64,000 nt of DNA from positions 141,880 through 205,879 of the forward strand of contig CAVUUH010000036.1 of NCBI GenBank assembly GCA_963744545.1, given 5' to 3'. The position numbers and the translations under genes were made by a program. Source of the DNA: an uncultured delta proteobacterium (GTDB lineage Bacteria > Desulfobacterota > Binatia > Binatales > Binataceae). The first letter of the stretch is position 1. Each line of letters opens with the position of its first letter. The notes beneath the pieces are model-generated. The model was not told the origin of the DNA, ran no database searches, and worked only from the letters and a program-made list of their open reading frames with translations. Shown here one piece after another: positions 1 through 62,724 of the stretch.

Positions 1-644
1 AGCATCGGGATCAATTCGGCGCGAATCCGGTTGCGCAAAATATCGCGCGACGAATTCGACGAATCCTCGACGAACGGAATCCCTCGCGCATCCAGATATT
101 CACGAATCTCGGCCCGCGAAAGCGACAACATCGGACGAATTATTTTAGCAGGCCCGCGCTCGGCCATCGCCGCCATCCCGACGCGCACCGGCGCCGCGCA
201 TCAGACGCATCAGCACGGTTTCAGCCTGATCGTCGCGATGGTGCCCAAGCGCTACAAAATCAGCGTGGACGCGGTCGGCGACGCGCAACAGAAACTCGCG
301 GCGAGCATCGCGCGCCCGCTCCTCGAGGTTCGCGGTCGTAGTCGATGCGTCCAGCCCGTCGGCGCCCTCGACAATCAACTCAATCCCGAGCCGCGCGCAC
401 ATCGAGCGCACGAATTCTTCGTCGCGATCTGCCTCATCACCGCGAATCTGATGATTGAGATGCGCTGCGACGACGCGGAAGCTCAGTCGCTCGCGAAAAT
501 CGACCAGCGCGCAGGTAAGCGCGACAGAATCAGCGCCGCCGGATAGTCCGACGAGCATGGATGAGCCGCGACGCATCCCCGTCCGCAAGAGTGCGGCCTC
601 AATCGCCCTGATTACAGTCTCTTCAGCATCCCGAACCATCACGA
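1..644 (-). CDS. tilS: tRNA(Ile)-lysidine synthetase TilS, N-terminal part. The 5' end runs off the window and there is an apparent frameshift near 145-160.
   Basis: PP-loop motif LSGGADS in ORF 145..708. After its stop at 145 the TilS homology continues in another frame (IIRPMLSLSRAEIREYLDARGIPFVEDSSN...ILRNRIRAELIPML). The likely start is the ATG at 642-644 (MVRDAEE...); the upstream 'residues' are read-through of the adjacent repeat. Confidence 0.7.
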
Positions 645-655
645 CGAGATTACTC

Positions 656-832
656 TTACACCTCTCCCCTCGGGAGAGGTCGCGCATCAGGCGCGGGTGA
701 GGGCGCACGCATCCAGCTTGATTTGAGCGCCCTCACCCGCCCAACGATAAAAATATCGTCGGGCGACCTCTCCCGGTTTGCGCCTGTTCAACAAAGTCGC
801 CATCCGCGGGAGAAGTAATTCCAGCCGCGACG
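656..832. repeat. REP/MITE-like element copy 1 (~175 bp) with nested inverted repeats (cctctccc-N4-gggagagg; gggtgagggcgc...gcgccctcaccc; cgacgata...tatcgtcg; ggcgacctctcccgg...ccgcgggagaagt)
   Basis: About 88% identical to 1236..1396 in the same orientation. Internal palindromic modules are visible directly in the sequence. Confidence 0.7.
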
Positions 833-866
833 TTTGAGCAGTGCACCTTTCACCAAATCAATCGCG

Positions 867-1231
867 TCTTACCTGGTTAGATCGCCGTGAGTATCTCCGC
901 CACCACAAATTCGGAGCCCCTTAACACCTGGTCATTCCAGAACCGCAGAACACGAAATCCTTTTTGGCTCAGGAACCGGCTCCTCGATGCGTCCGCAACT
1001 TCCCTGTTCCGCGTGCTGACCGCCGTCCAACTCAACGATTAGTCGACGGTCGAGGCAGCAAAAGTCGGCGATATAATTCCCTATCGGCACTTGTCGCCTA
1101 AACTTCATGCCGAGCAAGGCACGATTTCGGAGGATGTTCCAGAGCTTAAGCTCGGGTTCAGTCATCTCTCGCCGCATGCGGCGGGCTCGATCGAGAATTA
1201 TGGGATCGATCGGCGGTTTAGTCTCCATCAT
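867..1231 (-). pseudogene. DUF559 endonuclease-domain protein (Vsr-like fold) with an apparent frameshift near 1010
   Basis: The N-terminal part (METKPPIDPIILDRARRMRREMTEPELKLWNILRNRALLGMKFRRQVPIGNYIADFCCLDRRLIVELDGGQHAEQ) is in one frame. The canonical C-terminus (DASRSRFLSQKGFRVLRFWNDQVLRGSEFVVAEILTAI*) is in another frame, with a stop at 867-869. Confidence 0.7.
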
Positions 1232-1235
1232 GGAA

Positions 1236-1396
1236 GTATACCTCTCCCACCGGGAGAGGTCGCGCCTCGCGGGTGAGGGCGCAAGCATCCAGCTGAATGC
1301 CAGCGCCCTCACCCGCCCGACGATATGAATATCGTCGGGCGACCTCTCCCGGTTTGCGGATGGCGACAAAGTCGCCATCCGCGGGAGAGGTAATTC
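1236..1396. repeat. REP/MITE-like element copy 2 (~160 bp); begins 5 bp upstream of the DUF559 start codon
   Basis: Same nested inverted-repeat architecture as 656..832. Confidence 0.7.
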
Positions 1397-1437
1397 GCGG
1401 CGTTGTTCATTTGTGTGTTGACCTCGCAGAATTTCCA

Positions 1438-1815
1438 TCAACTTTGATCGCTTGATTTTGCGACCCGCCGCAATCGCGGCGGATTCGGGAGCGCGCTGCC
1501 GTCCGCGTGGATTGCGATTTCTATAAATTGGCGCAGCTCGATGCGTAGTTCGCCGACTGCGAGGCCCATGTGCTCGTGCGGAATCGGATCGAGCTTGGCC
1601 GAGGCTTTGTCGTATAGAGACCGGGCGCCTTCGAGGTTTCCGCGCTGTGCGTGCAGGATCGCGACCGCGGCCTGGATTAATCCCTGGTAGAAGAGTTTCA
1701 GTTCACCGTCGGAGCGCTTCCAGATTTCCTCCCACGCCTCGTGACACTCGAAGAAGCGACCCTCATTGAAGAGATCGATGCCCTGTTCGTAGAAATCTGG
1801 GCGCGGATGCGTCAC
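1438..1815 (-). CDS. DUF309 domain protein
   Basis: Motif FNEGRFFECHEAWEEIW. A 4-nt ATGA overlap with the upstream EthD gene suggests translational coupling. Confidence 0.7.
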   Translation of the reverse strand: MTHPRPDFYEQGIDLFNEGRFFECHEAWEEIWKRSDGELKLFYQGLIQAAVAILHAQRGNLEGARSLYDKASAKLDPIPHEHMGLAVGELRIELRQFIEIAIHADGSALPNPPRLRRVAKSSDQS

Positions 1816-2477
1816 ACAATTCGGTGCTCGGACGTGATTAGGAATGGGAACGGCAGCGCGAGGAACTTTGGCTCGTCGAGGCGCACCGCACGGTACTCGT
1901 CGGTGTTGCCTGAATCCCGGACCGCGTCAAAATTGTCGAACCACAGCTCTGCGACGCCATCGTAGCGTGGCGATGCGCCGGCGGCGTATCCCGACGGTCG
2001 CACGTGGCATTGGATGTAGCGTCGCGCTTGCGGGATCTTCGCGGCGAGCGGGCCGTGATGCGTTCGCCAGTATGCCTGGAACGCGGCGACGTCGGTGCCG
2101 GGCTTGCGCGTGAGCATCGAGAACATTTTAACTGCGCCGTCGCCGGGCGTCCCCTCTTTCTGGATAATCTCGTTCACGATAATCGATCCGGCCTTCGACA
2201 TATCGACGAATTTCGCATCGTCGGCGTGTGCCGCTTGTCGCGGTGCCGAATCGGCGGTGGCGCGAATGACGGCTTCATCCTCGAACCATGCTTCCGAAAT
2301 CCCGTCGTACAAAGGTTCGTGGTTGCGGTATGCCGACGGCAGCGTGATCGACGCGACATACTTTCGCAGTTCGGGTATCGCGCGAATAATCGCGGCGTGT
2401 TGGTCTAGCCAGTAGTTGCGGAAGTCGTCGACGCTGAGGCCCGGCTTGCGCTTGAAGAAATTGAGAGCCTTGACCAT
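1812..2477 (-). CDS. tandem EthD-domain protein
   Basis: Two EthD-like repeats (…FRNYWLDQHAAI… / …FQAYWRTHHGPLAAKIP…). Confidence 0.6.
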   Translation of the reverse strand: MVKALNFFKRKPGLSVDDFRNYWLDQHAAIIRAIPELRKYVASITLPSAYRNHEPLYDGISEAWFEDEAVIRATADSAPRQAAHADDAKFVDMSKAGSIIVNEIIQKEGTPGDGAVKMFSMLTRKPGTDVAAFQAYWRTHHGPLAAKIPQARRYIQCHVRPSGYAAGASPRYDGVAELWFDNFDAVRDSGNTDEYRAVRLDEPKFLALPFPFLITSEHRIV

Positions 2478-2486
2478 GCCGCGCAG

Positions 2487-3032
2487 CTATTGCTTGGTGG
2501 TGCCGGGCTCCAGCTCGACGCCGACCGGGACCAGCACGCGGACGACCATGTTGTAGAAGGCGACGTTCTGCACCAGTTCCATCACGCGGCGCGTGTCGAG
2601 GAATGGCTTCAGCGCGTTCCAGGTGGCGTCGGTCACGCGGACGTTGTTGGTCGCCTCGACAGCATAGCGAATCACGGCGCGCTCGTTGTCGTTGAACGTC
2701 GGGGATTTCTCCCAGTCTGCCAGCGCTTCGAGCTGTTCGCGCGAGACGCCGACGCGCCGCGCGATATTCCAGTGATGCACGAACTCGTACTGCGCGTCGG
2801 TCAGGCGTCCAACCGTGCAGATCGCGAGTTCGCGGAGTTTTGGATCGAGTTCTGTTTTGTTGCGAAGCTCGCTGCCCATTTGACAGAAGCGGCGCAGCAG
2901 GTTGGGCGTATGTCCGAGCGCCTTGAAAATGTTGCCGACGGTGCCGCCGCGCTCGGCGGCGAGGTTGTCGTAGATGACGCGGTCGGCTTCGGGGAGATCT
3001 TCGCGATTCAGGTAAGGTACGCGGGCCGCCAT
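2487..3032 (-). CDS. carboxymuconolactone decarboxylase (CMD/AhpD-like) family protein
   Basis: CMD-family signature across the ORF (…ICTVGRLTDAQYEFVHHWNIARRVGVS…). Confidence 0.65.
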   Translation of the reverse strand: MAARVPYLNREDLPEADRVIYDNLAAERGGTVGNIFKALGHTPNLLRRFCQMGSELRNKTELDPKLRELAICTVGRLTDAQYEFVHHWNIARRVGVSREQLEALADWEKSPTFNDNERAVIRYAVEATNNVRVTDATWNALKPFLDTRRVMELVQNVAFYNMVVRVLVPVGVELEPGTTKQ

Positions 3033-3095
3033 GAGTGCACCTCCTCAGTACGCAGAGACGGAATCTTGAATCGCGCGCGACGCGCTGAACAAGGT

Positions 3096-3121
3096 CCCTC
3101 TCCTTAAATCCTCTCCCCGAG
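3096..3121 (-). terminator. GC-rich hairpin (cctctcccc gagg gagagggggg) just downstream of the ilvB stop
   Basis: A perfect 9-10 bp inverted repeat sits 15 bp after the ilvB stop. The same hairpin type recurs at 17028-17052 and inside the REP-like elements. Confidence 0.5.
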
Positions 3122-3136
3122 GGAGAGGGGGGAACC

Positions 3137-4834
3137 TCAGGCGAACAGCATTTCGGACATTGCGCCGCCGGGCGGGATCATCGGCATCACCGCTTCTTCC
3201 TTCGGGATCACGACGTCGATCAGAACCGGGCCGGGCGTTGCGAATGCTTCTTTCATCGTCGCGACCAGGTCTTTCGCTTTTTCAATTCGGAAACCGTGCA
3301 TGCCATACGCGTCGGCCAGCTTGACGAAGTTCGGCACCGACATTGCCGAGTAGGAATACCGCTCGGCGTAGAACTTCTCCTGCCACTGGCGAACCATCCC
3401 GAGGAAGTAGTTATTCAGAATGATCACTTTGATATCGACGTTGTATTGGACCGCCGTGCCCAGTTCCTGGATGTTCATCTGGATCGAGCCGTCGCCGGAC
3501 ACCACTACTACTTTCTTGTCGGGCGCGGCGAAGGTCGCACCGATTCCAGCCGGCAATCCGTAGCCCATCGTGCCCAGTCCGCCCGAGGTCAGCCATGAGC
3601 GCGGATTCTCGAACGGGAACATCTGCGCCACCCACATCTGATGCTGGCCGACGTCAGTTGCGATTATGCAGTCGCCCTTCGTGATGTTGTGCATCTCGGC
3701 GATAACGTCGAGCGGCGACACACTCTCGCCGCGATGATTGTTCTCGTAGAGCGGCTTATCCTTCTGCCACTGGAGGATCTGCTGATGCCACTTGGTCCAT
3801 TCGGCGCGACGCTGGCCGATACTCTCGCGGCCTTTGATCTGGGTCAGCATGTCGGTGAGCACCGACTTGATATCGCCGACGATCGGAATATCGACTTTGA
3901 CGTTCTTCGAAATCGACGACGGGTCGATATCGATATGGATAATCGTTTCGGCTTTCGGTGCGAATTGGGAAATCTTGCCGGTGACGCGATCGTCGAAGCG
4001 CGCGCCGACTGCGATCAGGCAGTCGGTGTTGCAGACCGCGGTGTTGGTGCCGTACGAACCATGCATCCCGAGCATCCCGAGCCGCAGTGAGTCGGACGCC
4101 GGGAACGATCCAAGTCCCATCAGCGTTTCGGTGATTGGAATACCCAGTCCTCTGACCAGTTCGCGCAGTTCGGACGCCGCGCCGGACCATTGCACGCCGC
4201 CGCCGACATAAAACAACGGCGTCGAGCTTTTTTCGATCGCTTCGATCGCGCGCTCTATTTGCCGCGGATTGCCGCGAATCGTCGGCTTGTAGCCGCGCAG
4301 CTCAATTTTTTCAGAAAGGTGAAAGGTATGCTCGGCCTGCTGCACGTCCTTGGGCAAATCGACGACGACTGGACCGGGACGTCCGCTGCCGGCGATATAA
4401 AATGCTTCCTTGATGATGCGCGAGATGTCCTTGACGTTCTTGACCAGGAAATTGTGCTTGGTGCATGGACGCGTGATGCCGACGAAGTCCGCTTCCTGGA
4501 AAGCGTCGTTGCCGATCATGGTGGTCGGAACCTGGCCGGACAGCACCACCATCGGGGTGGAATCCATGTAGGCGTCGGCGATTCCGGTGACGGTGTTGGT
4601 CGCACCGGGGCCGGAGGTAACGAGCACGACGCCGGGGCGTCCACTGACGCGAGCATAGCCCTCGGCCATATGAGTCGCGCCCTGTTCATGGCGGACGAGA
4701 ACGTGCTTGATTTTTGAGTCGAGCAGAGCGTCGTAGGTCGGCAGGATAGCGCCGCCGGGATAGCCGAAGATTACGTCGACGCCTTCGGCAATCAGGCTCT
4801 CGATAACGATTTGTGCTCCCGTGAGTTTTTTCAT
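3137..4834 (-). CDS. ilvB: acetolactate synthase, large (catalytic) subunit, biosynthetic type; no ilvN small-subunit gene is adjacent
   Basis: The 565-aa TPP enzyme aligns end to end with IlvB (…GYPGGAILP…GPGATN…; C-terminus IPPGGAMSEMLFA). Confidence 0.9.
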   Translation of the reverse strand: MKKLTGAQIVIESLIAEGVDVIFGYPGGAILPTYDALLDSKIKHVLVRHEQGATHMAEGYARVSGRPGVVLVTSGPGATNTVTGIADAYMDSTPMVVLSGQVPTTMIGNDAFQEADFVGITRPCTKHNFLVKNVKDISRIIKEAFYIAGSGRPGPVVVDLPKDVQQAEHTFHLSEKIELRGYKPTIRGNPRQIERAIEAIEKSSTPLFYVGGGVQWSGAASELRELVRGLGIPITETLMGLGSFPASDSLRLGMLGMHGSYGTNTAVCNTDCLIAVGARFDDRVTGKISQFAPKAETIIHIDIDPSSISKNVKVDIPIVGDIKSVLTDMLTQIKGRESIGQRRAEWTKWHQQILQWQKDKPLYENNHRGESVSPLDVIAEMHNITKGDCIIATDVGQHQMWVAQMFPFENPRSWLTSGGLGTMGYGLPAGIGATFAAPDKKVVVVSGDGSIQMNIQELGTAVQYNVDIKVIILNNYFLGMVRQWQEKFYAERYSYSAMSVPNFVKLADAYGMHGFRIEKAKDLVATMKEAFATPGPVLIDVVIPKEEAVMPMIPPGGAMSEMLFA

Positions 4835-17027: not shown

Positions 17028-17052
17028 TTCCCCTCTCCCGCGGGGAGAGGGG
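17028..17052. terminator. bidirectional hairpin cccctctccc gcgg ggagagggg between convergent genes
   Basis: A perfect 10-bp inverted repeat between the stops at 17012 (+) and 17064 (-). Confidence 0.5.
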
Positions 17053-44845: not shown

Positions 44846-45277
44846 GCGGCATTCTAGCCGATAAGCCCGGCCGGATGGTACCCATGCCGGAAACCCCTCG
44901 CTTCGGGGCGGAGGAGCGAGCCATTGTCAGCGTCGTTCACGACTCGCCGTCGGCAAGGCCTCGGCCAGCCGCGTCGCTTGGTTGCGCAACCCGTAGGCCA
45001 GCCGGCCGGATCGCCGGAATACCCTTTCTCGAACGGCCGCCCGCGCGGCTTCCCCCGCTTTTGCTGATTCTGCAGCGAATTATCAGCTACCAAGCCCCTC
45101 TCTATTGCGCAAAAATGAACGACTGCGCACCCTTCGGCCTCAATGCCTACCTCCCGCATCAGCAGACGGTGCCGATGCGCGAACTGAACCTTCGATGCGG
45201 CGCCATTATGATAATATACAATTGTTATTAAATCAAGAGGGATCGAGGTCAATTGGTCATCCGCTTCGGTGCAGAGC
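44846..45277. repeat. ~430-bp repeat, copy A; it contains an anomalously AT-rich core (gattatgataatatacaattgttattaaatcaagaggga)
   Basis: About 85% identical to 51838..52268 in direct orientation. It lies between the cfa stop and the Mo-oxidoreductase start. Confidence 0.75.
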
Positions 45278-51837: not shown

Positions 51838-52268
51838 GCGCATTCTAGCCGATAAGCCCGGCCGGATGGTACCCATGCGGGAAACCCCTCGCTTCGGGGC
51901 GGGAGAGACGAGCCATGCGGCAGCGTCATTCACGACTTGCCGTGAGCAAGGCCTCGGCCAGGCGCGTCGCCTGGTTGCGCAACCCAGGCCAGCCGGCCGG
52001 ATCGCCGGAACGCCCTTACTCGAACGGCCGCCCGCGCGGCTTCCCCCGCTTTTGTTCGTTCCTTGCAGCGAATTATCAGCTACCAAGAACTTTCTCCATT
52101 GCGCAAAAATGAACGACTGCGCACCCTTCGGCCTCGATACCCACCTCCCGCACCAGCGGACGGGGGTCTACTTGCAACCTGAACCTTCGATGCGGCGCGA
52201 TTATGATAATATACAATTGTTATTAAATCAAGAGGGAATTGAGGTCGAATTGGTCGTCCGCTTCGGTG
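51838..52268. repeat. ~430-bp repeat, copy B
   Basis: Direct repeat of 44846..45277 with the same AT-rich core (gattatgataatatacaattgttattaaatcaagaggga). Confidence 0.75.
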
Positions 52269-62021: not shown

Positions 62022-62372
62022 GCCGGGCCGGCGGCACCTCGATCCGGACCGCGACGGCGGCGCTGGCGATCACCGCGGTGTCGCCGGCCTCCTCGTCGGG
62101 GACATCGAGCCCGCCTTTCACTACCTTGACCGTCACGGTGCCGTGCGGCAATGCCGCCTTGACGCGCTCGGCGTCGACCCGCTCGGGGCGCTGCACGCCG
62201 ATCGTGACCTCGACCTGCATCGCCCGCGCCTCGATCCCGAGGGTGCGGATGAAGGTCAGCGAGCTGTGGTGGATCGCGTCCTCGACCGCGCGGATCGCCG
62301 CCTTTGTGTAGTCGCCGCCGTGCAGGTCGTTGCCGCTGCCCATCTCGAGGATCGCGCGCTTCGCCGCCATCG
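62022..62372 (-). CDS. Lin0512-family small conserved protein, paralog B (intact, 117 aa)
   Basis: MAAKRAILEMGSGNDLHGGDYTKAAIRAVEDAIHH…VTIGVQRPERVD…LPHGTVTVKVVKGGLDVPDEE…. Confidence 0.5.
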
Positions 62373-62381
62373 CCCTTCTCC

Positions 62382-62724
62382 TTACGGGATGTCGAGCCGC
62401 ACCACCGCGGCGGCGTTGGCGATGACCGTCGAGCCGGTGCCGGCGTCGTTGACGATCTCGAGCCGCCTTCGACGATTTCGACCGTGCCGGTGCCGTGCGG
62501 CAATACCGCCAGCACCGCCGCCTGGTCCACGCGGTCGGGGCGCGGCACCCCGATCCTGACCGCGACCTGCATCGCATCGACCGGCAAACCGACCGCATCG
62601 GCGATGCCGAGCCCGTTGTGCCACAAGGCGTCGCGCAAGGCGCGCACCGCCGCCTTGGTGTAGTCGGTCCCGCGGATGTCGGTGCCCATGCCGATCTGCA
62701 AGACCATCCGCTTCAACGCCATTT
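62382..62724 (-). pseudogene. Lin0512-family small conserved protein, paralog A (tandem), with a frameshift near 62470
   Basis: MALKRMVLQIGMGTDIRGTDYTKAAVRALRDALWH…LPHGTGTVEIVEGG, then another frame LEIVNDAGTGSTVIANAAAVVRLDIP*. Confidence 0.5.

Follow-up and report, generated by a model that had tools for sequence, protein, structure and literature searches.

Introduction

Among uncharacterised nuclease families, DUF559 is one of the most common. REP sequences are imperfect palindromes of 20-40 nt with a conserved head tetranucleotide (GTAG or CGTC). BoxC, PIT and intrastrand-triplex-motif (TM) repeats have been described in Escherichia coli and in more than 260 other genomes (Bachellier et al. 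in the 1990s; Hoyne et al. 2000; Holder et al. 2015, PMC4666352). Local genome instability has been associated with these repeats, which have been known since the 1990s, but their function, origin and mechanism of spread have not been established (PMC4666352). A TM is defined by three consecutive blocks of 6-15 nt, namely a pyrimidine block, the purine block complementary to it and another purine block that can act as third strand (PMC4666352), with loops of 1-6 nt (Holder) or 0-10 nt (Hoyne) allowed between them. The E. coli TM sequence is CCCTCTCCC-N3-GGGAGAGGG-N3-GGGTGAGGG, and inverted doublets are known in the family; the published TM work does not mention DUF559 or ycjD (PMC4666352). The Vsr/DUF559 group includes the homing endonuclease I-Bth0305I, as stated in PMC3424549.

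Here we describe two palindromic elements on either side of a DUF559 gene. The best explanation of the locus as a whole (probability about 0.6) is that repeats of the BoxC/PIT/TM class spread locally by segmental duplication and bracket DUF559, with which they may form a functional pair.

Two palindromic elements beside a DUF559 gene

The window, as we call the whole 64-kb stretch of DNA analysed here, contains two co-oriented elements of ~165 nt each, which are 85-90% identical. They lie among the following features:

1-639, minus strand: 5' part of tilS, with the conserved ATG at 639-637 and a frameshift near 180-190
658-822, minus strand: copy 1 of the element, the downstream doublet, between DUF559 and tilS
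823-873, minus strand: duplicated spacer, diverged from its original at 1399-1450 (DUF309 stop region plus spacer)
877-1231, minus strand: gene of DUF559 (Vsr-like PD-(D/E)XK endonuclease), with one frameshift
1237-1398, minus strand: copy 2 of the element, the upstream doublet in gene sense, between the DUF309 stop and the DUF559 start
1438-1815, minus strand: DUF309 gene, of which the last ~12-15 coding nt and the spacer are co-duplicated with the element
3096-3132, minus strand: isolated three-block BoxC/TM-type motif, just 3' of an ilvB-like stop codon
17030-17052, strand not assigned: isolated simple hairpin CCCCTCTCCC-GC-GGGGAGAGGGG, between convergent ORFs

The initial annotation had described two co-oriented copies of ~170 bp, about 88% identical, and these are real: BLAST aligns copy 1 and copy 2 with 86% identity over 162 nt, the mean column identity over a wider stretch is also 86%, and a 91-nt core reaches 90%. 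No third full copy of the ~165-nt element was found by BLAST within the window. Both copies are built from the same modules, given here with the plus-strand positions of copy 2 first:

1240-1260 (copy 1, 660-680): hairpin A, arms ACCTCTCCC/GGGAGAGGT
1261-1270 (copy 1, 681-695): short palindromic linker
1269-1316 (copy 1, 693-740): palindrome B, arms GGGTGAGGGCGC.../...GCGCCCTCACCC
1314-1341 (copy 1, about 740-765): palindrome C, arms CGCCCGACGATAT/ATATCGTCGGGCG in copy 2
1342-1391 (copy 1, 766-816): hairpin D, arms ACCTCTCCCG/CGGGAGAGGT
1356-1382 (degenerate in copy 1): inner palindrome of D, GCGGATGGCGAC/GTCGCCATCCGC
1239-1248 with 1383-1392 (copy 2): outer stem, TACCTCTCCC with GGGAGAGGTA
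1249-1263 with 1339-1353 (copy 2): second long-range pairing, ACCGGGAGAGGTCGC/GCGACCTCTCCCGGT

Every inverted-repeat module listed initially is present, while both long-range pairings of copy 2 had been missed; through them the entire unit folds as a single structure. The ends TACCTCTCCC...GGGAGAGGTA are terminal inverted repeats, as in a MITE.

The repaired DUF559 protein matches Pfam PF04480 (E 8e-42) and PDB 3HRL (E 5e-28). Its intact orthologue P0001 has 122 aa and 96% identity, and relative to it the frameshift is an extra G in the run 1002-1004. The initial annotation had called DUF559 frameshifted, but this does not seem to be real biology: the essential tilS is also frameshifted, here and in a sister assembly, so both frameshifts are likely to be assembly indel errors. 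The DUF559 ATG at 1231 (orthologue-conserved ATG at 1228) lies 7-10 nt from copy 2, in agreement with the proposal that the elements abut start codons. For tilS the proposed start at 644 is not the conserved one, which lies at 639, 20 nt from the last hairpin. The leader GTAAGAGTAATCTCGTCGTG (640-659) before tilS is kept in the orthologues, and hairpin A together with the leader is conserved in all seven genomes that share the locus. A naive ORF list does read through the elements, as had been observed. The idea that they replace the normal promoter/RBS region is not supported, since the genes from 1 to 4834 are all co-directional, the promoter scan gave no promoter-like site in or near the elements, and the hairpin and GTAAGAGTAATCTCGT leader before tilS are kept even where most of copy 1 is missing. 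The terminator scan made a single terminator-like call near the elements, at 1379-1400 on the plus strand, which is the noncoding strand here. As for the isolated hairpins at 3096 and 17028, they exist, but neither has a T tract nor was called by the terminator scan, and we do not retain them as terminators.

The elements belong to the BoxC/PIT/TM class

The elements are noncoding palindromic repeat DNA of the BoxC/PIT/TM class, arranged as an inverted doublet. Each half-element reads CCTCTCCC-loop-GGGAGAGG, a palindromic linker and GGGTGAGGGCGC, and the two GGGTGAGGGCGC blocks face each other to form palindrome B. The three blocks are found in both halves of both copies. Of the initial REP/MITE-like label, the palindromic repeat element remains and the classical REP does not; the repeat class is BoxC/PIT/TM.

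The loops separate the doublets from the published TM. On the A side, 3 nt lie between blocks 1 and 2 and a palindromic linker of 11-15 nt between blocks 2 and 3. On the D side, the first loop has 32 nt and holds the 27-nt inner hairpin, and the palindromic linker before block 3 has 27 nt; the loops of published TM have 1-6 nt. With such long linkers and loops the published triplex geometry is not reached and the unit grows to ~165 nt; by loop length, the doublets are thus not strict triplex motifs. The isolated motif at 3096-3132 (minus strand), CCCTCTCCC-TCG-GGGAGAGG-ATTTAA-GGAGAGGG, has loops of 3 and 6 nt and conforms to the full TM definition.

Sequence comparison revealed related elements at unrelated loci and in other gene contexts of other assemblies, and the concern raised initially that the element could be unique to this locus is thereby removed. 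Exact 21-mer matches in one related MAG were only two. A 21-mer match in L002 (Acidimicrobiaceae) falls inside a coding region with no element around it and was dismissed as chance. No Rfam family matches at gathering score in the whole window, and none at threshold in the element region, L001 and L003; the best sub-threshold scores belong to Rhizobiales-2 (24.7 bits, threshold 40) and whalefall-1 (21.4 bits, threshold 37).

Local duplication at a stable locus

The pair arose by one segmental duplication, in which the DUF309 stop region, the spacer and the doublet were copied to the far side of DUF559. Copy 1 is a duplicate of copy 2 plus ~50 nt of flank from the DUF309 stop region, and this homology shows best in L018 and L019, in which the duplication took in ~50 nt upstream of the element as well. 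In the window, the duplicated spacer is preceded by GGTAAGA, a remnant of a lost half-element. The two-copy arrangement is also found in three other independent assemblies (L014, L018 and L019), with related states in three more. The event dates to the ancestor of one clade (four syntenic genomes), in which it is fixed. In the sister clade only a half-element (the 3' arm of B, linker and hairpin A) follows DUF559, fused in frame to its 3' end, and the gene tree has two clades that match these two locus states. L019 is an intermediate, in which the half-element and the full copy occur together. Of 56 DUF559 orthologues, 41 have the in-frame tail RAPSPVARGARRPLPRGEV, which the half-element encodes.

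The two copies have evolved at different rates. Compared with the L014 orthologues, copy 2 is 99% identical and copy 1 only 87%, the latter diverging faster than the flanking genes (91.6%). DUF559 lies between DUF309 and tilS in all seven genomes, without presence/absence variation at this locus and always in the same orientation. The initial annotation had suspected a small composite element; with the gene syntenic in seven genomes, it is not recent composite-transposon cargo here. DUF559 is vertically inherited at the tilS locus, and the second doublet comes from ordinary segmental duplication. We also considered another origin, suggested by L016 and L017, in which DUF559 entered one ancestral element at its palindrome B loop, but the L016/L017 state is not ancestral at the tilS locus, since the gene tree indicates that it derives from a full upstream doublet by a ~55-nt deletion.

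Folding, covariation and a possible role in RNA

With a model restricted to Watson-Crick pairing, each element folds into one multi-branch palindrome. The minus-strand RNA of copy 1 reaches -103 kcal/mol (z -8.6). For copy 2 the values are -133 kcal/mol (z -16.1) for minus-strand RNA, -127 kcal/mol (z -12.6) for plus-strand RNA and -78 kcal/mol (z -13.7) for DNA. Across 14 copies, 94.6% of pair cells hold standard base pairs, and 11 pairs are altered on both sides, compared with 4.2 +/- 1.2 in shuffles (0 of 500 reach 11) and 1-3 in slid controls. With two exceptions, these double changes lie inside the variable palindromes: the BoxC blocks are invariant, and the linker and loop palindromes (C and inner D) vary in sequence yet remain self-complementary. 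The RNA folding proposed initially as a check thus gives a strong fold, with a structure conserved through compensatory changes.

These results invite an RNA reading, in which the doublets are structured cis-acting RNA of the operon transcript, stabilising or processing the mRNA or regulating the translation of DUF559 and tilS, and their behaviour as DNA repeats is secondary. The extreme stability on the transcribed strand and the covariation would be expected from it, as would the conservation of copy 2 above that of its neighbouring genes and the retention of hairpin A and the tilS leader in seven genomes. The GGGAGAGG block situated 8-12 nt ahead of the DUF559 ATG also fits. However, both strands and the DNA fold almost equally, as DNA palindromes should, the family has members in unrelated contexts, no match attains an Rfam threshold and copy 1 diverges faster than the genes. 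Furthermore, the work of Maher and colleagues, as it is summarised in PMC4666352, revealed neither promoter nor terminator activity of BoxC/PIT elements, which also left RNA polymerase unaffected. We consider a primarily RNA-level explanation rather unlikely. An RNA role and a DNA-repeat role are not mutually exclusive.

DUF559 genes are bracketed by palindromes in several phyla

DUF559 genes are bracketed by pyrimidine-block/purine-block palindromes far above chance in several phyla. A flanking inverted-repeat score of at least 20 was obtained for 12 of 22 plasmid or chromid DUF559 loci from Alphaproteobacteria, Deinococcota and Cyanobacteriota, a sample that is not random among all DUF559 genes and in which some Deinococcus loci are mutually related, compared with 0 of 753 control placements in the same loci and 0 of 1464 random placements in the window. 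The longest repeat (110/114 nt) was found in Sinorhizobium meliloti, and the remaining 10 loci, for example those of Neisseria, P. aeruginosa and Photobacterium, have none. The association between DUF559 and palindromic repeats is therefore stronger than was stated at first. A search of the openly accessible literature returned no paper describing a link of DUF559 or ycjD with BoxC or inverted repeats.

Binatia paralogues at unrelated loci also have flanking inverted repeats: the arms of L020 are 93 nt long (86% complementary), and L021 and L022 have 22-nt arms. The complete arm-gene-arm unit of L021 is absent in L043, where only a 30-nt gap is left between the same kinase and regulator neighbours. 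The layout with inverted arms does hold at L020, L021 and L034. In Sinorhizobium K101, two co-oriented doublets surround another DUF559. Matches to the S. meliloti arm occur at 19 places in its own replicon and, across 105 rhizobial plasmids, at 265 places, so the rhizobial bracketing arms belong to a dispersed repeat family. In E. coli, the end of ycjD falls within a CCCTCTCCC hairpin, and there is a BoxC copy 168 nt downstream. Read-through tails of the PHPxPLPxGER type end about 27 of 59 distant DUF559 homologues in a manual count, that is, the C-terminal tails of about half of the homologues examined are repeat read-through.

The main reading of the initial annotation was an ordinary non-autonomous MITE/REP-type element inserted independently in two neighbouring intergenic sites, with DUF559 as a bystander. 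Terminal inverted repeats, the intergenic position and the dispersal of the family in other genomes are all compatible with it. Nevertheless, the duplicated segment runs ~50 nt past the element into the DUF309 stop region, and this flank homology largely refutes an independent insertion of copy 1. No consistent target-site duplication was seen at the ends of the copies inspected, and the sister clade has only a half-element, on the tilS side. No transposase-like gene is linked to the element at any of the loci examined, where only DUF559, a gene not known as a transposase, lies between matching arms, and the flanking of DUF559 recurs at unrelated loci at the frequency given above, with no instance among the 753 controls. 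Such independent insertions seem quite unlikely to us.

Flanking repeats could also be the sites at which recombination inverts or excises a DUF559 cassette, as a programmed switch. Predicted targets of programmed inversion, meaning inverted repeats that touch coding sequence, are enriched in the labels 'DUF559 domain-containing protein', 14-fold, and 'endonuclease domain-containing protein' (PMC9881135). Long inverted repeats surround the gene in L020 and L034, and the direct repeats of the window could mediate excision. On the other hand, the loci examined have no neighbouring recombinase or invertase, the window doublets are co-oriented and the orientation of DUF559 is constant in the seven syntenic genomes, which makes a switch very unlikely. 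The predicted 'programmed inversions' at DUF559 genes may merely reflect flanking palindromes.

An assembly artefact, or a purely local duplication without a wider family, could be suspected from the frameshifts in tilS and DUF559 and from the presence of only two copies in 64 kb, but it is already refuted by the independent assemblies with the same or related states and by the family members at unrelated loci.

A proposed partnership of nuclease and repeat

The reading that we prefer joins repeats, segmental duplication and DUF559 bracketing. The recurrent pairing in distant bacteria suggests, without proving it, that the DUF559 family is the partner enzyme of BoxC-type repeats. More specifically, we put forward, as a tentative idea that is possible rather than probable, that DUF559 proteins (YcjD-like, Vsr-fold) are cognate enzymes of BoxC/PIT/TM repeats in the way RAYTs are for REPs. 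In this view, the nuclease gene lies between inverted or direct copies of its repeat, whose palindromes the enzyme would recognise and nick, thereby leading to their duplication, dispersal and the reported 'genomic instability'. The doublet-DUF559-doublet of the window would be one such unit, in a Binatia-like soil bacterium.

DUF559 and the repeats would then be a functional pair analogous to RAYT and REP/REPIN. A Vsr-like nicking nuclease might recognise and cut the palindromic arms in an extruded or mispaired form, after which break repair and template switching could copy, duplicate, delete or symmetrise the repeats, mostly beside the gene. A PD-(D/E)XK nickase alone is not a transposase. 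This nuclease-plus-repair model would account for the local duplication, the half-elements, the fast turnover of copy 1 and the doublets found elsewhere without a gene. In this operon the elements are probably co-transcribed, and they put a Shine-Dalgarno-like GGGAGAGG block 8-12 nt ahead of the DUF559 start. Judging from the sequence, a 9-bp hairpin would mask this block and hold expression of the nuclease at a low level. The repeats could be ends of the unit, insertion targets or by-products of the nuclease, and the half-element read-through could equally be a repeat that simply supplies the 3' end of the gene. The association, found in Binatia, Alphaproteobacteria, Deinococcota and Cyanobacteriota and, as traces, also in E. 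coli, leads to one testable question: does the nuclease act on the repeat?

Comparison with known systems

The window elements share with BoxC/PIT/TM repeats the blocks CCCTCTCCC, GGGAGAGGG and GGGTGAGGG(C), the intergenic location and the inverted doublets, as well as local rearrangements, small deletions and fast turnover. They are likewise comparable to REP/REPIN as short palindromic repeats in inverted doublets, but in contrast to REPs their units are longer, lack the conserved GTAG/CGTC head and are composed of pyrimidine-only and purine-only blocks. The mosaic of palindromic modules, the differing module subsets carried by family members, the size of 100-200 nt and the expected co-transcription with strong RNA folding recall BIME/RIME and ERIC/Correia-type MITEs, to which the elements have no sequence relationship and from which they differ in having no linked transposase and, at the ends inspected, no consistent target-site duplication.

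As for the bracketed gene, it resembles the homing endonuclease genes of the Vsr/DUF559 fold in belonging to the same superfamily, in being a small free-standing gene in intergenic sites within operons and in the presence or absence of the whole unit at one locus (L021 versus L043). Unlike them, DUF559 lies outside any intron or intein, is flanked by long palindromic repeats and has stable synteny at the tilS locus. In comparison with REP/REPIN-RAYT, the enzyme is another one: no Y1 transposase was found in any locus examined, and the bracketed gene encodes a PD-(D/E)XK Vsr-like endonuclease (PF04480) and not a Y1 transposase of the IS200/IS605 type. What both systems have in common is a nuclease-type gene that is mostly single-copy and vertically inherited and lies between copies of a repeat dispersed in the same genome (S. 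meliloti), together with the logic of an enzyme and its cognate repeat, which is proposed here as a model.

Structure of the two repeats flanking DUF559

All genes in positions 1-4834 of the window are on the minus strand, transcribed in the order ilvB-like, CMD-family, EthD, DUF309, DUF559 and tilS. Two co-oriented repeats, delimited by BLAST and alignment, lie on either side of DUF559, and two isolated motifs are found farther along:

~658-822: copy 1, in the DUF559/tilS gap
~1237-1398: copy 2, in the DUF309/DUF559 gap, co-oriented with copy 1
3096-3132: complete three-block BoxC/TM motif (3-nt and 6-nt loops)
17030-17052: simple hairpin

The copies are 86% identical over 162 nt by BLAST and 90% identical in a 91-nt core, and no third full copy was found by BLAST in the 64-kb window. 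The initial annotation had described a pair of REP/MITE-like elements; their repeated and palindromic nature was confirmed, and all of the inverted-repeat modules that it listed were recovered. We have found two further long-range pairings, one joining the outer ends (TACCTCTCCC/GGGAGAGGTA) and one more internal (ACCGGGAGAGGTCGC/GCGACCTCTCCCGGT), so that the entire unit forms a single multi-branch fold. In RNA folding, which had been proposed as a check, both copies fell far below the shuffles (z -8.6 to -16.1), and no shuffle matched the native stability in any of the four tests.

Predicted folding of the two repeats
Copy 2, + strand RNA: -127 kcal/mol, z -12.6
Copy 2, - strand RNA: -133 kcal/mol, z -16.1
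Copy 2, + strand DNA: -78 kcal/mol, z -13.7
Copy 1, - strand RNA: -103 kcal/mol, z -8.6

Other early readings fared less well. The isolated motifs had been taken for copies of the first hairpin acting as terminators. The one at 17030-17052 is a simple hairpin, whereas that at 3096-3132 has all three blocks; neither has a T tract or was called by the terminator scan. The elements were also thought to replace the promoter and RBS regions of tilS and DUF559. This is not supported: the scan found no promoter-like site, and hairpin A and the GTAAGAGTAATCTCGT leader ahead of tilS are conserved in 7 of 7 genomes; tilS itself starts at 639, not 644. The frameshift reported in DUF559 does correspond to one additional G at 1002-1004 when compared with the sister assembly L014, but a pseudogene is no more likely than an indel error. 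The essential tilS is also frameshifted (~180-190), single-base frameshifts thus being present in two adjacent genes, and the gene calls of L014 have tilS split and EthD fused to DUF309, which suggests the indel errors typical of long-read assemblies.

Two other repeats were observed in the window. An intergenic stretch of ~400 nt occurs twice, ~7 kb apart (44849-45242 and 51840-52237, 91-96% identity), both copies ending with the AT-rich ATTATGATAATATACAATTGTTATTAAATCAAGAGGGA directly ahead of an ORF; it may be a duplicated regulatory region. A 113-nt direct repeat (62111-62223 and 62463-62575, 77% identity) has its copies 352 nt apart.

Origin of the pair

Close homologues were found by searching with the repaired DUF559 protein. 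Judging by the names that related proteins and loci carry, the window probably comes from a Binatia-like lineage. The gene order ilvB-like, CMD, EthD, DUF309, DUF559, tilS, ftsH, folP and onward is common to six other assemblies (L014-L019), which indicates that DUF559 is resident at the DUF309/tilS position. The repeats around it differ, being either full doublets of two inverted halves or half-elements. The half-element, made up of the 3' arm of palindrome B, a linker and hairpin A, is joined in frame to the 3' end of DUF559 and ends 17-18 nt 5' of the tilS ATG.

Repeats around DUF559 at the syntenic locus (upstream; downstream)
L015: full doublet; half-element only
L016, L017: doublet ~55 nt shorter; half-element only
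Window, L014, L018: full doublet; duplicated flank, then second full doublet
L019: full doublet; half-element, then duplicated flank and second full doublet

An independent insertion of the two copies is contradicted by three observations. Wherever the second doublet is present, the ~50 nt ahead of it duplicate the DUF309 stop region and spacer; L019 carries both the half-element and the full copy and is therefore an intermediate; and the neighbour-joining tree of the adjacent genes has two groups exactly matching the two locus states. Copy 1 is thus explained by a single segmental duplication in the common ancestor of the clade to which the window belongs, and the upstream copy of L016 and L017 was shortened secondarily, by deletion. 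Compared with L014, the window has an unusually conserved copy 2 (99% identity) and an unusually unstable copy 1 (87%), against 91.6% in the flanking genes. The half-element also encodes an in-frame tail, RAPSPVARGARRPLPRGEV, found in 41 of 56 DUF559 orthologues, whose variable residues follow the palindromic linker.

Relatives and repeat class

Relatives came to light in a genome scan and a metagenome scan: two loci of a single MAG labelled 'uncultured delta proteobacterium' (L001 and L003) and ten metagenome contigs (L004-L013). Their neighbours are unrelated (hydrolase and glyoxalase; MacB and aldo-keto reductase; ABC transporters; glucanotransferase) and their module subsets differ. A further candidate, L002, was rejected as a chance match within a coding region. 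In an alignment of 14 copies, considering the local-hairpin structure, standard pairs occupy 94.6% of pair cells. Both partners have changed in 11 pairs; shuffles give 4.2 +/- 1.2 such pairs, none of 500 reaching 11, and slid controls give 1-3. Palindromes C and inner D, the variable ones, contain nine of the 11 and hairpin A the remaining two, with none in the outer D stem (helix 1) or palindrome B. The elements are therefore neither unique to this locus nor devoid of conserved structure.

In L001 (5790-5905, - strand) and L003 (4225-4335), a shared second module of ~110 nt, reading ttctaacagggacgaag...aaggtgcaggggttacccctgcc...gtgaaacccacNgcgggtttcac and with no Rfam match, directly adjoins the doublet. 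In L007 (5466-5715, - strand), two canonical BoxC units (CCTCTCCCCTCGGGAGAGGGCTGGGGTGAGGGTG) lie in tandem beside a reduced family member.

Read from either end, each half of the element is CCTCTCCC-loop-GGGAGAGG, then a palindromic linker, then GGGTGAGGGCGC, and palindrome B is formed by two facing GGGTGAGGGCGC blocks. These three blocks are those of the BoxC/PIT/TM repeat, CCCTCTCCC-N3-5-GGGAGAGGG-N3-GGGTGAGGG, known from 23 copies and five inverted doublets in E. coli K-12, found in more than 260 genomes and associated with local genomic instability (PMC4666352); BoxC is also listed in PMC2267715. No threshold-level match to the elements was found in Rfam.

DUF559 genes bracketed by repeats at other loci

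In a Binatia paralogue from Candidatus Binatus (L020), DUF559 lies in the uvrB/NAD synthase gap, flanked by 93-nt arms that are 86% complementary. In two other Binatia paralogues (L021 and L022), DUF559 separates a sensor kinase from the cognate sigma-54 regulator; one flank carries CCCTCGCCC...GGGAGAGGGcaaGGGTGAGGG and the opposite flank its complement. In a relative whose kinase is 76% identical (L043), the kinase-regulator gap has 30 nt and no element, so the arm-gene-arm unit is wholly present in one genome and absent from the other.

Using tblastn, we sampled 22 DUF559 loci on plasmids and chromids, a modest and partly phylogenetically clustered set, in which 12 have a flanking inverted repeat scoring at least 20. 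No such score was obtained at any of 753 other placements in the same loci or of 1464 chosen at random in the window (maximum 14 in both). DUF559 and the repeats are thus statistically associated, which bears out the connection drawn in the initial annotation.

Inverted repeats flanking DUF559 in the plasmid and chromid sample (matching positions, or arm length only)
S. meliloti: 110/114 nt, including canonical BoxC
D. psychrotolerans: 55/56 nt
Pseudanabaena sp. ABRG5-3: 40/40 nt
Sphingobium sp. RAC03: 32/36 nt
Azospirillum lipoferum: 24/24 nt
Sphingomonas parapaucimobilis: 23/23 nt
Deinococcus sp. NW-56: 22/23 nt
Arm length only: Novosphingobium 66 nt; D. proteolyticus 53; Pseudanabaena galeata 52; Qipengyuania 35; D. 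aetherius 23

The arm in S. meliloti is repeated in dispersed fashion, at 19 places in its own replicon and 265 in 105 rhizobial plasmids. At a second Sinorhizobium DUF559 (L044), two co-oriented BoxC doublets with 81% identity bracket the gene, the same architecture as in the window, independently reached. About 27 of 59 distant DUF559 homologues, by our count, have a C-terminal tail of the PHPxPLPxGER type, which is a read-through of CCTCACCC...CCTCTCCC...GGGAGAGG, and the DUF559 gene ycjD of E. coli has its 3' end within a CCCTCTCCC hairpin. DUF559 proteins are also 14-fold enriched among predicted inversion targets in a published survey of inverted repeats that touch coding sequences (PMC9881135). 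Our literature search, covering sources outside subscription, found no paper linking DUF559 to BoxC-type repeats, and this association is the part that deserves follow-up.

Some of these loci have further peculiarities. In E. coli K-12 (NC_000913.3, 1351200-1351800), the ycjD terminus (...RRSPSP, then stop) lies inside CCCTCTCCCtgaaagaGCGAGGG and is followed by a 42-nt duplicate of the gene's own 3' end, with BoxC/TM copy 9 in the same orientation 168 nt past the stop codon. On plasmids of three Deinococcus species (L030, L045, L046), the palindrome-flanked DUF559 is antisense within the hpa (4-hydroxyphenylacetate) operon, its intergenic position differing in each. In P. galeata pPg_02 (L050), the DUF559 match and its 52-nt inverted repeat (1924-1975/2352-2403) both lie within one very long 'DUF559 domain-containing protein' CDS (912-4282, running beyond the stretch shown), the result of a fusion or of insertion within a different gene.

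Possible mechanism and comparison with known systems

DUF559 is probably a Vsr-fold PD-(D/E)XK endonuclease, considering its matches to PF04480 (E 8e-42) and PDB 3HRL (E 5e-28) and the presence of a homing endonuclease in its superfamily group. We suggest that it could recognise and nick the palindromic arms; through the ensuing repair and template switching, repeats would be duplicated, lost or made symmetrical, chiefly near the gene. Such a process would explain the local duplication and the half-elements, as well as the rapid turnover of copy 1 and the instability reported around BoxC. The repeats themselves may be unit ends, insertion targets or by-products of the nuclease. Those within the operon are probably co-transcribed, and the GGGAGAGG block 8-12 nt ahead of the DUF559 start, held in a 9-bp hairpin, may keep nuclease expression low.

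The closest analogy is RAYT with REP/REPIN, to which the DUF559 system does not belong, since the enzyme family is different and there is no GTAG head. Compared with published BoxC/TM repeats, the linkers here are palindromes of 11-15 nt or 27 nt and one loop bears an inner hairpin, which exceeds the published loop limits of 1-6 or 0-10 nt (PMC4666352). We therefore file the elements as a variant of BoxC/PIT/TM rather than as canonical members, a new and elaborated form within a known repeat class.
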